IMG/VR virus record: IMGVR_UViG_3300042731_011235
DNA length: 10,833 nt
Strand: one strand, 5' to 3'
Source of the DNA: a virus
In this document: positions 3,279 to 10,812 of the stretch, piece by piece
How the letters are laid out: each line of letters begins with the position of its first letter
Position numbering within the stretch: the stretch's first letter is position 1
Notes under the pieces: generated by a model
The model's database searches: none
What the model was told of the DNA's origin: nothing
The model's input: the letters and a program-made list of their open reading frames with translations, nothing else
Program-made: the position numbers and the translations under genes

Positions 3279-3365
3279 TGGCGGAGAGGGCGGGATTCGA
3301 ACCCGCGTGGGTGTTACCCCGCGTGCGTTCCAAGCACGTGCACTCAGCCTCTATGCGACCTCTCC
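3279..3365 (-). tRNA. tRNA-Ser(GGA), class II with a long variable arm, CCA encoded.
   Basis: The reverse complement is GGAGAGGTCGCATAGAGGCTGAGTGCACGTGCTTGGAACGCACGCGGGGTAACACCCACGCGGGTTCGAATCCCGCCCTCTCCGCCA. The acceptor is GGAGAGG/CCTCTCC. The anticodon stem is CGTGC/GCACG with loop TTGGAAC. The T-arm is GCGGG-TTCGAAT-CCCGC. Confidence 0.88.
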
Positions 3366-3468
3366 ATTACAGTACCACTATTTCCCCTGGGTCAATACGA
3401 CCTAATAGTAGTCATGCTAGGAATACCAGACCAATCAAGAAGACGGACGACCTTCTATCCTAACAATA

Positions 3469-3711
3469 CTAGTTTTCCCCTATTTGCGCAAGCTTCTTTA
3501 TGGATAATTGGCGCGCGGTTACGCATTCAGCCCCCGCGTTCTTCGCTTCTGCTGTGCCCCTATCCTTCCAGCCTTTCATGTATGCTATGCGCTCTCTCGC
3601 AGCCGCAACTCTCTCGGCTGATGGCTTCGAAGGGCACTCCCCCGCCTCTCGAATAGGACACCCGACTAATGAGGCGTCTCCACAACCCTCTTCACAGTAG
3701 TAGTTAGCCAT
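3469..3711 (-). CDS. Hypothetical Cys-rich protein (MANYYCEEGCGDASLVGCPIREAGECPS...).
   Basis: ATG at 3711 is preceded by AGGAG plus a 6-nt spacer. It immediately follows the TAG of the upstream gene. Confidence 0.55.
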   Translation of the reverse strand: MANYYCEEGCGDASLVGCPIREAGECPSKPSAERVAAARERIAYMKGWKDRGTAEAKNAGAECVTARQLSIKKLAQIGEN

Positions 3712-3713
3712 CA

Positions 3714-3998
3714 CTATCTCCTATTCACACGCCTATACTCACCACGATATTTCCACTCCAGATCCAAAATGGTGGCCTTTACTTTATTTAAGTCACCAGT
3801 TGTTTTAACGCACGCTCTTCCAGCACAGAAAAACCAATCTACTGGCTGACCGCTCGTGGCCGCTACTTCCTTGACGAATCCCTCGATAAATTCAGGGGAA
3901 ACTGAGTGCATCATGAAAGCGAGCTTACCATTTTTGTAAATATCAGGATCACACGACGGCGGAGCCGTCGTCGAATCGTCGGTCACTAAAGTCGACAT
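3714..3998 (-). CDS. Hypothetical protein, 94 aa.
   Basis: GGAGGG plus a 5-nt spacer precedes the ATG at 3998 (MSTLVTDD...). The track start at 4019 lies upstream of that RBS. Confidence 0.6.
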   Translation of the reverse strand: MSTLVTDDSTTAPPSCDPDIYKNGKLAFMMHSVSPEFIEGFVKEVAATSGQPVDWFFCAGRACVKTTGDLNKVKATILDLEWKYRGEYRRVNRR

Positions 3999-4479
3999 GT
4001 TTTCCCTCCGAGAAATCATAGTGCTTTCGCATCCCCATATCGTCCGACTTGCCGGCGTACCATCTGAGGATTCCCGCTATGTCCTTATGAGTAACCTCAT
4101 ATCTGTTGACGCCGTCCTGTCCATCAATGAGCATAGCGTCGATTCCGCCGCGGTTATTGGCCTCGAAGGCTACCGTACGGGACGGCTTCCTGCGCATCCA
4201 AACAAGCTCAAGGCCTCCTTCCCCGTCGGCATCAACTTGCGGAGGGCGGAGAGACAAGCCCTCCTCCCTGATGATCTCCATAAGTGTTTTGGTCAGGGAC
4301 TTTAGCCGCTGAACTTTGTTTCTGTCAAGTCCGATTGCCTGGGCCTCACTCTCAATCCATTCGCTGGTGCACGTCTCACAGGATTCGTTGCATCCTTCCT
4401 CATCTTCGCAGTGGTATGTAGGAAACTTGGGCCGCAGACTCTTCAGAAGCCGCGCAGCGAGATCCTGTAGCTTACTCAT
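3949..4479 (-). CDS. Hypothetical protein with an N-terminal Cys4 cluster (HCEDEEGCNESCETC).
   Basis: This is a 176-aa ORF. AAGGAAAG lies upstream of the ATG at 4479. Confidence 0.6.
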   Translation of the reverse strand: MSKLQDLAARLLKSLRPKFPTYHCEDEEGCNESCETCTSEWIESEAQAIGLDRNKVQRLKSLTKTLMEIIREEGLSLRPPQVDADGEGGLELVWMRRKPSRTVAFEANNRGGIDAMLIDGQDGVNRYEVTHKDIAGILRWYAGKSDDMGMRKHYDFSEGKHVDFSDRRFDDGSAVV

Positions 4480-4511
4480 TGGCCTGCTTTCCTTCGAACT
4501 CCGCTTTAAGA

Positions 4512-4991
4512 CTAAAGCACATGTAACATATATGATTCAGCATACTGGTATCTAGCGAAATAACCTTCCCACGGCTTATCGCCCTTATACTTGGACGGGT
4601 CTAGTCTTAGCTGAGACTCAAACTGCCGCGCCTGAATTACATCGGCGAATACGCCCACAACCGCCCAGTACCCATCCGTACGGCCAAATGTGTTACCATC
4701 CGAATACCTAACGACCACTAGGTGAACAATATCCGCAGCATATACTTCATCTGGTACCTCTATTTCCTCAGCCCAAAAGTCAGATAGAGCCTCTCTACTG
4801 CGCACAAAAAACTTAGGTGTAAATGTTATGAGAGCATCGGTGCGACCGGTCCACTTATTATCTGGATCAATAGCTTCTCCGCCTGAGGTATGCTCTCGAT
4901 AATCCAAGATCAAGACCTTGGAAGGAGGGACAATGGGCGCCTCCTTCCTCGGCCTTTTCTTAGACTTCTTTTTTGCCTTTTTCTTAGCCAT
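4512..4991 (-). CDS. Hypothetical protein with a Lys-rich N-terminus (MAKKKAKKKSKKRPRKE...), possibly nucleic-acid binding.
   Basis: This is a 159-aa ORF. Its start lies 18 nt downstream (in the direction of transcription) of tRNA-Phe. Confidence 0.6.
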   Translation of the reverse strand: MAKKKAKKKSKKRPRKEAPIVPPSKVLILDYREHTSGGEAIDPDNKWTGRTDALITFTPKFFVRSREALSDFWAEEIEVPDEVYAADIVHLVVVRYSDGNTFGRTDGYWAVVGVFADVIQARQFESQLRLDPSKYKGDKPWEGYFARYQYAESYMLHVL

Positions 4992-5008
4992 TATCCACCC
5001 AAAACAGA

Positions 5009-9219: not shown

Positions 9220-9496
9220 ATCGTGCGACTTGACGTAACTGAGAATACTCTGTCTCCTCTAGCGGAAATATGTGGTATCCGCAGTGCTCGGTAAATATTG
9301 CTATCTCATGTGCGCCTTCGTTGACTACGCAAAAAGCCCCCTCAAAAAAGGCAAAAGAGCCGTCGGGGAACCGAAGCCTAACCTTATCGTTAAAATCGCC
9401 CGCCTCTAGATGTTCTCTTTGTCCGCTGCTGCGTGTGCGGGCAAGCTCTTTCGCCCAGTCTCTCCAGTGTGTCGGCATCTGCTCCAGGTTTCTCAT
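9197..9496 (-). CDS. Hypothetical protein, 99 aa.
   Basis: AAGGAG plus a 5-nt spacer precedes the ATG at 9496. The start is directly abutted by the upstream TAG (TAGATG). The last 7 codons overlap the 5' 23 nt of tRNA-Lys. Confidence 0.55.
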   Translation of the reverse strand: MRNLEQMPTHWRDWAKELARTRSSGQREHLEAGDFNDKVRLRFPDGSFAFFEGAFCVVNEGAHEIAIFTEHCGYHIFPLEETEYSQLRQVARWERGQTG

Positions 9497-10015
9497 CTAG
9501 GCTCCTTCAAAGTAGGGCTTCCAATTCTCGTAGCCGATGGTCTCTGCGTGCTGCGCCAGGATTAATTTCCTGGTAGGAGTCCACGGCCTTCTAAGGAGCG
9601 GCATGCGCGCCTGCTCTGGGGTTCTGTTGCCCTTCTTCGCATTGCATGGCTTGCAGGCCGCAACCACGTTGCCCCAATCCTTCACGCCCTTCTGGCTGAT
9701 CGGGATAACGTGATCAACTGTCGCGGTGTGATGCGACAGCGACTTTCCACAGAACTGACAAGTATAGTTATCCCGGATGAGCAGGTTCTTCTTGCTCAAA
9801 GAAACCTGCTTCTGCCGAGGGATAAATATGTACTTGATGAGCGCAACTACGCTCGGCACTTTGAACTTCTGGCTTTGTGATCTTACCTCGATGCCCTCGA
9901 AATACTCGAAGACATGAACCTTATTACGAAAAACCAGATTCAGCGCCCGAGTCCACGGGATCAAGTTAAGTGCCTCACCACTTGCGTTCAGAAGCAGAAC
10001 CTTCCGAGTCTCCAT
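9497..10015 (-). CDS. HNH endonuclease.
   Basis: The protein contains CQFCGKSLSHHTATVDHVIPISQKGVKDWGNVVAACKPCNAKKGN, a C-x2-C ... H ... N ... C-x2-C HNH core. GAGGGG plus a 6-nt spacer precedes the ATG at 10015 (METRKVLLLNASGEALNLIPW, a typical N-terminus for this family). The track start at 10054 has no RBS. Confidence 0.8.
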   Translation of the reverse strand: METRKVLLLNASGEALNLIPWTRALNLVFRNKVHVFEYFEGIEVRSQSQKFKVPSVVALIKYIFIPRQKQVSLSKKNLLIRDNYTCQFCGKSLSHHTATVDHVIPISQKGVKDWGNVVAACKPCNAKKGNRTPEQARMPLLRRPWTPTRKLILAQHAETIGYENWKPYFEGA

Positions 10016-10169
10016 TGGTTGCCCCTCTTTCGTCTGCCGCTTCCTAGACGGCATTCGTCAAATGGGACCAACGCGGGGCTCTGCCCCTTCAGCGTTGATC
10101 CAGCCTAGCTCCGAGTGTCATACTGCCGATACGGCTTTATGCAACGTGCCATGAAATGGCCTTTCTTTT

Positions 10170-10215
10170 TGGTAGCGGTGGGGGGATTCGAACACCCCAC
10201 GGTGTTATCCACCGG
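10170..10215 (-). pseudogene. tRNA 3'-half remnant. It is Ser-like: variable arm, T-arm, acceptor 3' strand and CCA, but no 5' half.
   Basis: The reverse complement is CCGGTGGATAACACCGTGGGGTGTTCGAATCCCCCCACCGCTACCA. GGATAACACC resembles the GGGTAACACC variable arm of the Ser tRNAs in this window. The T-stem has a mismatch. No matching 5' acceptor strand (AGCGGTG) exists before tRNA-Leu begins 13 nt away. Confidence 0.55.
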
Positions 10216-10228
10216 GTTTCGTCAAATT

Positions 10229-10313
10229 TGGTGCACAGGGAGGGAGTCGAACCCTCATGCCGTTAGGCACGGCGGTTTGAGCGCCGCGTGTCTGCCGATT
10301 CCACCACCTGTGC
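10229..10313 (-). tRNA. tRNA-Leu(CAA), class II, CCA encoded.
   Basis: The reverse complement is GCACAGGTGGTGGAATCGGCAGACACGCGGCGCTCAAACCGCCGTGCCTAACGGCATGAGGGTTCGACTCCCTCCCTGTGCACCA. The acceptor is GCACAGG/CCTGTGC. The anticodon stem is CGGCG/CGCCG with loop CTCAAAC. The D-arm closely parallels E. coli Leu tRNAs. Confidence 0.85.
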
Positions 10314-10329
10314 ACGTCTACTTCAAAAC

Positions 10330-10405
10330 TGGTCGGGCGAGTGGGGGTTGAACCCACGACTTCCAGTTTATAAGACTGGCGCTCTAACCACTGAGCTACC
10401 GCCCG
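10330..10405 (-). tRNA. tRNA-Ile(UAU), CCA encoded.
   Basis: The reverse complement is (G)CGGGCGGTAGCTCAGTGGTTAGAGCGCCAGTCTTATAAACTGGAAGTCGTGGGTTCAACCCCCACTCGCCCGACCA. The D-arm TAGCTCAGTGGTTAGAGC is identical to E. coli tRNA-Ile2. The anticodon stem is CCAGT/ACTGG with loop CTTATAA. Placing U8 and A9 implies a C1-G72 pair, so the 5' end is uncertain by 1 nt. Confidence 0.8.
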
Positions 10406-10812
10406 CGTATAAGTATAACGTCCTCAACAATCCCGTGCCCGCAGCAGGCGGACACTGCGCCCTTAATTACACCTAAGCAAGCATCATGTCCTTCGGGCGT
10501 CGGCATCCGGCCACATTTCACGCAAGGCCGCTCGCACGTTGCGGGCTCGCCGTTAGAATATACCTATCTCCGGCCGTCCCAGGAGATCTCGTGTCCTCTG
10601 CTGTGGCTCGTTGCTGTCATGCCTGTCTCTTTCGCACAAACAGATCCGCTATGGTGCAGCGATAACCCCTCAAACCTTATGGCTCAATGGGTGCCACCGT
10701 CGCGTTCACTCCCTAGTGGGGAGCGCGGGTGATTTGTGTGGTCGTTTGTCACCCACATTTTCAATTCTTCCCATAGCAGCACGCCCAACTATATGCTTCA
10801 CTCGATGCATCC

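Follow-up and report, generated by a model that had tools for sequence, protein, structure and literature searches.

The IMG/VR virus record IMGVR_UViG_3300042731_011235 is a 10,833-nt stretch of DNA (hereafter, the window) that carries an array of tRNA genes interleaved with short open reading frames (ORFs). ARAGORN revealed eight tRNA genes in the window, all on the minus strand, and the same eight genes were matched by the Rfam family RF00005 with scores ranging from 53 to 72 bits, compared with a gathering score of 29 bits. A permissive Rfam scan of the window returned neither a ninth tRNA nor a tRNA remnant, with the extra matches being antisense echoes only. The eight genes called by ARAGORN are listed below together with their Rfam scores.

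3279-3365, minus strand: tRNA-Ser(GGA), class II, CCA encoded (54.1 bits)
5009-5086, minus strand: tRNA-Phe(GAA), CCA encoded (62.1 bits)
7967-8054, minus strand: tRNA-Ser(GCU), class II, CCA encoded (58.6 bits)
8252-8341, minus strand: tRNA-Ser(UGA), class II, CCA encoded (57.4 bits)
8963-9049, minus strand: tRNA-Ser(CGA), class II, CCA encoded (58.1 bits)
9142-9219, minus strand: tRNA-Lys(CUU), CCA encoded (62.2 bits)
10229-10313, minus strand: tRNA-Leu(CAA), class II, CCA encoded (53.1 bits)
10330-10405, minus strand: tRNA-Ile(UAU), CCA encoded, C1-G72 (72.1 bits)

An earlier note on this DNA, made from the sequence alone, had proposed eight minus-strand tRNAs with these anticodons and an encoded 3′ CCA. 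Both programs bore this out, and ARAGORN, as an automated tRNA finder, recovered all eight with the same coordinates and anticodons as the note. Besides the encoded CCA found in eight of eight genes, all of the anticodon loops are canonical (7 nt, with U33 and A37). The four tRNA-Ser genes have long variable arms and the discriminator G73, while the remaining four tRNAs have A73. By standard wobble rules, Ser-GGA reads UCC and UCU, Ser-UGA reads UCA and UCG, Ser-CGA reads UCG, and Ser-GCU reads AGC and AGU, so that the proposed complete serine decoding set, in which all six Ser codons are read by four anticodons, is indeed present. Acceptor ends of the form GGAG.../...CTCCGCCA, which had been described as a shared feature, were found in three of the four tRNA-Ser genes. 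An alignment of 11 tRNA-Ser sequences from the window and its relatives (see below) conformed to a class II cloverleaf and displayed compensatory double changes in 14 of 26 pairs, which indicates that the window tRNAs are functional-looking genes rather than chance matches. The eight tRNA genes are real, intact, and functional-looking. Scans of the region for promoters and terminators yielded counts equal to those of shuffled controls, i.e., background level.

The array runs past the edge of the window. A 16.7-kb JGI metagenome contig (L001) and a Logan contig (L002) are both 99.9% identical to the window, and two strain variants (L010 and L011), retrieved via the HNH endonuclease encoded in the array, are 99.5% identical to window positions 8313-10786, extend upstream of tRNA-Ile, and carry a tRNA-Val(GAC). 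At their 5′ end, L010 and L011 encode a Dcm-type methyltransferase, a full-length copy of which lies on a further contig (L016) that overlaps L010 at 99.85% identity and contributes Pro-UGG, another Val-GAC, and a Val-UAC truncated at the start of that contig. This brings the count for the window's population to at least 12 tRNAs over ~13 kb, with the upstream end still open, and the limits of 3279-10406 that the earlier note set for the array do not hold since sibling contigs carry further tRNAs upstream, beyond the window edge. The final 47 nt of the window (10786-10833) are unlike L010 and L011, and three independent assemblies break less than 300 bp upstream of tRNA-Ile, with contig ends at window positions 10536 and 10557; this looks like a junction of strain variation. 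The tRNA-Pro(UGG) of L016 (1939-2013) has the anticodon loop CCUGGGC, with C at position 33, where U is near universal.

The closest relative is represented by two loci (L005 and L065) on a 43.6-kb ENA scaffold (ERZ23499028 scaffold_843). It shares with the window a gene order comprising the HNH endonuclease, an 84-aa ORF, a 61-aa ORF, a major vault protein (MVP) homologue, Pam3_gp59, DUF4326, and MazG, and its MVP homologue is 76% identical to that of the window. ARAGORN identified 34 tRNA genes on one strand of L065, all but one of which were jointly recovered by Rfam scans of L065 (positions 1-10500) and L005. Their order is as follows.

L065, first part: Ala (two genes), Glu (two genes), Gly-UCC, His, Arg-CCG, Arg-UCU, Cys, Phe, Arg-ACG, Pro, Thr-GGU
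L065, middle: Arg-CCU, Leu-UAG, Leu-CAG, Tyr, Leu-GAG, Asp, Asn, Asp, Gln (two genes), Gly-GCC, Thr-UGU
L065, last part: Val-UAC, Pro, Lys-UUU, Lys-like (8-nt anticodon loop), Val-GAC, Ile-UAU, Leu-CAA, Ser-UGA, Ser-GCU

After the MVP gene, the relative carries Ser-GGA and a decayed Phe gene, giving at least 36 tRNA genes in ~25 kb that serve 18 amino acids. CCA is encoded in 32 of the 34 tRNAs of L065, and the isoacceptors of the relative include four each for Arg and Leu and two each for Glu, Gln, Ala, Gly, Thr, and Val. Together, the window, its sibling contigs, and the relative contain 34 distinct anticodons, enough to read ~54 of the 61 sense codons under strict wobble rules.

The eight genes of the window correspond to the last part of this bank. 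Specifically, the Ser-GGA orthologue in L005 is 95% identical, with two compensatory acceptor-stem changes; Ser-GCU is 87% identical to its orthologues in L005 and in a further related locus, L006; and Ser-UGA is 89-92% identical to its orthologues in the relatives. The L005 orthologues of Leu-CAA and Ile-UAU are 76% and 85% identical, respectively. Ser-CGA is present in L006 (92% identical) but absent from L005, and Lys-CUU is present in L006 (86% identical) but not at this place in L005, which has Lys-UUU elsewhere. Aminoacyl-tRNA synthetase genes were not encountered in the regions examined. Two further features of the relative's bank were observed. Directly after Lys-UUU, a Lys-like tRNA (L065 14227-14303, the same as L005 4952-5028; Rfam, 51 bits) has the 8-nt anticodon loop CCUUUUAA, to which ARAGORN assigns no anticodon; this gene may represent a tRNA of the frameshift-suppressor type or a copy in decay. 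In addition, a 202-aa, N-terminally truncated, class I release-factor-like ORF lies among the tRNAs (L065 6237-6845) and has kept the PPT (PxT) and GGQ motifs.

Four serine isoacceptors within 7 kb had been called striking in the earlier note, but this impression proved to be a product of where the window was cut: the window's own population has at least 12 tRNA genes, and the relative has at least 36, with four isoacceptors each for Arg and Leu. Under a chance model that draws a random sample from ~43 anticodon types, a full set of four Ser types is obtained with a probability of 0.0006 for 8 genes, 0.004 for 12, 0.22 for 30, and 0.48 for 36. If a bank holds ~36 of the ~43 types, a complete Ser set would thus turn up in roughly one of two cases. 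Serine codons are also not enriched, accounting for 4.8% of the 4195 codons in 29 phage genes, in which the six Ser codons are used evenly (11-25% each). A serine-specific framing does not hold, as the relative's bank spans 18 amino acids and has four isoacceptors each for Arg and Leu. On the most likely reading, the four Ser genes are simply the part of a near-complete bank that decodes serine, which is ordinary for a phage of this kind, and are no device specific to serine. Two other ideas were considered and rejected. The enrichment in class II tRNAs (five of eight), as a sign of a Schlafen-type nuclease directed at long variable arms, is a post hoc pattern, and the relative's bank is not so enriched; the characterized bacterial Schlafen cleaves Lys-UUU, Ala, and Met tRNAs, not Ser or Leu (PMC13056530). 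An alternative genetic code was likewise dismissed, given that the called genes are free of in-frame stops, all three stop codons are used, and no suppressor tRNA is present in the window.

The strand that bears the tRNAs holds a continuous run of short ORFs, most of them without a family match. The matches that point to a phage are HNH, PHROG families, Pam3_gp59, DUF4326, and a MazG-like domain, and further downstream lie several PHROG families and an Ogg-like glycosylase, 44-46% identical to phiCbK-like phage genes. No cellular housekeeping genes were found in the regions examined. On this gene content, the phage origin claimed for the element is highly probable. That the array instead belongs to a plasmid, an integrative element, or a bacterial chromosome is very unlikely: structural and packaging genes were not seen in the regions examined, and the homologues of the MVP-like protein and the Dcm methyltransferase are mostly bacterial, which would suit such an element, but the long one-strand run of short and mostly family-less ORFs, the many HNH endonucleases, and the other phage-type matches do not, and both the single-gene matches to large phages and the shared architecture of the phage T5 tRNA region (see below) argue against it. 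Whole-window megablast against deposited phages gave no match, and tblastn with 2856 aa of concatenated ORFs against the same phages gave single-gene matches only (e.g., the Ogg-like glycosylase in phiCbK-like phages). No related record was found in IMG/VR by a protein-based locus search or with three exact DNA patterns, nor was there a match in two pattern scans of JGI metagenomes. Use of the MazG-like ORF for downstream extension returned only a 3.7-kb fragment, in which no hallmark genes were reached, and a scan of the genome collection with the 35-nt Ser-GGA core gave no match, so that neither a host nor a binned copy was retrieved. The sample and run accessions did not turn up in a literature search.

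We propose, with a probability of roughly 70%, that the window is the promoter-distal end of a large tRNA bank that serves the general translational self-sufficiency of an uncultivated, probably large, virulent, tailed phage. In such a phage, the tRNAs and ORFs would be transcribed as long polycistronic RNAs, from which host RNase P and 3′ processing enzymes would excise tRNAs already bearing CCA. Host synthetases would then charge the phage tRNAs, whose identity features, such as G73 and the long variable arm of the Ser tRNAs, are of the bacterial type. With the bank, phage translation would depend little on host tRNAs and would go on where these suit the phage poorly, dwindle, or are attacked, and homing endonucleases together with recombination would add, swap, and remove tRNA cassettes over time. 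Candidate selective causes are codon mismatch, loss of host tRNAs during takeover, and host tRNA nucleases. Several points weigh against this proposal. The bank of at least 36 genes is seen in the relative, while the window's own population documents 12. No capsid, terminase, or tail genes were found in the ~45 kb examined, so the assignment to a phage rests on accessory-gene content. Expression, processing, and charging of the tRNAs are all inferred, the benefit to the phage is argued by analogy, and, since one relative lacks Lys-CUU and Ser-CGA, some members of the bank may have a specific selective value that falls outside this general model.

Two of these candidate causes can each be read as the purpose of the array, and they are partly overlapping drivers. 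Under counter-defence, the phage tRNAs would replace host Lys, Ser, and Leu tRNAs cut by anticodon nucleases or by other defences aimed at tRNAs and would themselves escape cleavage. Precedents exist: T5 tRNA-Lys, whose counter-defence role is proven, neutralizes PARIS AriB (PMC11464382), phage tRNAs neutralize retron effectors (PMC11555353), mycobacteriophages carry anticodon-loop escape variants (PMC10264068), and tRNA-Lys(UUU) is a recurrent target, including of a bacterial Schlafen nuclease (PMC13056530). The presence of Lys-CUU, along with an AAG share of 67% among Lys codons, would allow most Lys decoding to bypass Lys-UUU, a loose fit to this idea, and a near-complete bank would guard against many nucleases together. 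The target isotypes Lys, Ser, and Leu are common to the window and to the nuclease-evading phage tRNAs described by van den Berg et al. (2023, PMC10264068) and Azam et al. (2024, PMC11555353). However, escape substitutions in such tRNAs are defined relative to the host tRNA, and the anticodon loops of the window are all canonical; neither the window nor the related contigs examined showed any tRNA repair genes (RNA ligase or Pnkp); and the relative's bank spans 18 amino acids without singling out Lys, Ser, or Leu. Moreover, mycobacteriophages avoid the UCN-reading tRNAs Ser-GGA, Ser-UGA, and Ser-CGA (PMC10264068), the opposite of the window, which has all of them. We therefore regard counter-defence as a rather unlikely account of the array as a whole. 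Codon compensation, i.e., the supply of tRNAs for codons that are frequent in the phage and poorly served by the host (AUA, UUG, AAG, and the Ser codons), appears doubtful too. Codon usage is flat for a GC content of 52%, with AUA making up 24% of Ile codons, AGA and AGG together 33% of Arg codons, and AAG the above-mentioned share of Lys codons, and half of the eight tRNAs (those with anticodons UAU, CAA, CUU, and CGA) read a single codon each, a pattern that resembles targeted supply. Against this idea, the Ser codons are few and evenly used, UUG makes up 17% of Leu codons, close to the one-in-six share expected by chance, and the relative's bank covers nearly all codons, common and rare alike.

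The earlier note had also read the shared acceptor ends as a sign that Ser genes had duplicated and diverged in the array. As a recent event, this was not supported: the Ser paralogues within the array are only 64-72% identical to one another, compared with 87-95% to their orthologues in L005 or L006 and, for the phage Ser-UGA, up to 86% to bacterial Ser-UGA. An ancient duplication is conceivable, but an origin of the four genes through copying in place with a change of anticodon seems improbable to us, even though tRNA genes for the same amino acid adjoin in T5 (Ser1-Ser2, Gln1-Gln2), in the relative (Gln-UUG/Gln-CUG, Lys-UUU/Lys-like), and on L016 (Val-UAC/Val-GAC), and the variable-arm loop GGTAA(C/A)AC is common to all four Ser tRNAs. 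The acceptor-end likeness carries little weight here, as a GGAG start with G73 is also found in bacterial tRNA-Ser of several phyla and is a general feature of these tRNAs. We scanned 185,579 species genomes for the Ser-GGA/Ser-UGA form of the variable-arm/T-arm motif and found it in 46 species, always in tRNA-Ser genes; these species include Rhodococcus and its relatives (Actinomycetota), Bacteroidota, Verrucomicrobiota, Chloroflexota, and others. Moreover, overall identity to the phage Ser-UGA is 80-86% for Ser-UGA genes of Bacteroidota (Saprospiraceae, Chitinophagales), with 78-82% in the 5′ half, a part outside the search pattern. These genes are closer to the phage gene than any paralogue in the array, which likewise speaks against duplication in place. 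Those Bacteroidota genes do not encode CCA, unlike the phage genes, and their likeness to the phage Ser-UGA is a weak hint at a possible donor or host.

Among known systems, the tRNA region of T5 (Tequintavirus; NC_005859 28038-40847) provides the closest parallel in organization. It has 25 tRNAs in 13 kb on one strand, with small ORFs and heg HNH genes between them, and the window shows the same one-strand arrangement and the same pattern of intervening genes. By these features, the window array can be classed as a putative phage tRNA gene cluster of the T5 type, even though there is no sequence relationship between the two (no megablast match). T5 has Ser-UGA and Ser-GGA (adjacent) as well as Ser-GCU, to which the window adds only Ser-CGA, and tRNA genes for the same amino acid are often adjacent in T5. 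The two differ in that T5 has Ile-CAU where the window has Ile-UAU, and in that the window has several tRNAs with C34 (Lys-CUU, Leu-CAA, and Ser-CGA) and an MVP homologue embedded in the array. No counterpart of the stable non-tRNA RNAs of T5 was detected in the window by the permissive Rfam scan.

Large tRNA sets are known from several phage groups, with up to 67 tRNAs in huge phages, in which larger genomes have more of them (Al-Shayeb et al. 2020, PMC7162821), and with 33 in Bxz1, 37 in Phabba, and 25-27 in Ounavirinae among tRNA-rich myoviruses (PMC13015707). Near-complete sets as in the relative of the window occur in huge and jumbo phages and in these myoviruses, where translation factors are also co-encoded, and the relative likewise has its release-factor-like ORF. 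With the element described here, the phages that bear near-complete tRNA sets gain an uncultivated lineage for which no relative has been deposited. The comparison further illustrates, for scans by window, that the full extent of a tRNA cluster is needed to tell whether it is enriched for an amino acid.

As the earlier note had stated, the tRNAs are interleaved with small genes: conserved short ORFs, with an HNH ORF among them, abut the tRNAs on the same strand, in several places at a distance of only 1-10 nt. The ORFs between the tRNAs are listed below.

9497-10054, minus strand: HNH homing-endonuclease ORF (called from 10015, 172 aa), between Leu-CAA and Lys-CUU
9197-9496, minus strand: 99-aa ORF, sharing 23 nt with the 5′ end of tRNA-Lys
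8602-8955, minus strand: 117-aa ORF (called at 113 aa), with its start 7 nt downstream of Ser-CGA
8344-8598, minus strand: 84-aa ORF, ending 2 nt upstream of Ser-UGA (PHROG 5861, 3e-6)
8056-8241, minus strand: 61-aa ORF, separated by 10 nt from Ser-UGA and by 1 nt from Ser-GCU
7733-7912, minus strand: 59-aa ORF of uncertain coding status, between Ser-GCU and the MVP homologue
5097-7694, minus strand: 865-aa MVP homologue, between Ser-GCU and Phe-GAA
4512-4991, 3949-4479, 3714-4019, and 3469-3714, minus strand: four conserved small ORFs, between Phe-GAA and Ser-GGA

The HNH ORF matched Pfam HNH_5 (1.3e-14) and HNH (7e-13) as well as PHROG 16726 (3.4e-36). Its product is 93-95% identical at the amino acid level to the copies in L005 and L006, compared with 56-81% for neighboring ORFs, which suggests that the endonuclease spread recently and horizontally among related phages. 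Further HNH ORFs are present in L010, L005, and L065. The conserved small ORFs vary more widely: the 84-aa ORF has orthologues of equal length in L005 and L006 (64-68% amino acid identity), the 99-aa ORF was called at the same length in L010, L011, and L013-15 and is 60% identical in L006, and the four ORFs at 3469-4991, which have no Pfam or PHROG match, are 60-74% identical to syntenic ORFs of L005 and L006. The 61-aa ORF is 56% identical to a 61-aa ORF of L005 and is absent from L010. The 59-aa ORF showed no family match and no tblastn match in L005 or L006 and was not called in L001.

Differences between close relatives affect tRNAs and ORFs together. In strains that are 99.5% identical, window positions 8056-8341, with Ser-UGA and the 61-aa ORF, are exchanged for L010 positions 5941-6549, with an HNH ORF and an 88%-identical Ser-UGA allele whose D-arm is of the type found in the L006 copy. 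The window shares with L006 a block that comprises the 99-aa ORF, Lys-CUU, Ser-CGA, and the 117-aa ORF (81% identical in L006) and that L005 lacks. The Phe gene that follows the MVP gene is intact in the window (5009-5086), but has A34 and a stem mismatch in L006 (5190-5265) and a 3-nt deletion in the anticodon loop in L005 (12673-12744); it appears to be decaying in both of these loci, while L065 retains a separate, intact Phe-GAA upstream. Taken together, these differences amount to cassette turnover in the array, as expected with homing endonucleases among its genes. The exchange of HNH cassettes between such similar strains, the variable presence of the Lys-CUU/Ser-CGA block, and the decaying Phe gene offer a clear view of how a tRNA bank changes with time.

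The MVP homologue matched Pfam MVP_shoulder (9.5e-25) and Vault_3 (7e-7) and gave a collinear phmmer match to rat MVP. An AlphaFold model (mean pLDDT, 64) displayed N-terminal beta repeats, a shoulder at residues 537-644, and a 137-residue helix at residues 647-783. The top Foldseek matches of this model were the full-length rabbit, human, and rat vault MVP chains (E-value of ~1e-21), and the R1-R7 crystal structure was matched at ~1e-6. The ORF thus encodes a full-length MVP homologue with repeats, shoulder, and a cap-type helix. More than 3400 homologues were found, mostly in metagenome-assembled bacterial genomes (47-50% identical), and the copies in the huge phages LR756500 and LR756501 are 42-46% identical. 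Unlike in the window, the MVP gene of these huge phages has no tRNA closer than 20 kb, and two other phage-like contigs with an MVP gene have one tRNA each, ~8 kb away. The MVP gene lies among tRNAs in three related phages, and this position holds only within their lineage.

The eukaryotic vault is a ribonucleoprotein with small RNAs. By analogy, one might imagine a vault-like shell tied to the tRNA bank, e.g., one that would hold or shield phage tRNAs or translation components from host tRNA nucleases. We consider this extremely unlikely; the idea arises because the MVP gene is flanked by tRNAs, and this is so in one lineage only. The embedded MVP homologue may nevertheless be the more unusual gene of the array, though bacterial and phage MVP homologues have already been described in preprints (10.1101/872010; 10.1101/2023.11.10.566534), with phage MVPs appearing in one from 2023. 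A phage-like contig from JGI 3300023196 (L008) carries homologues of Band_7 and MVP, the latter 52% identical to the protein of the window, and has a tRNA with the anticodon CUA, i.e., of the amber-suppressor type, at positions 1877-1950, which may point to stop-codon recoding.

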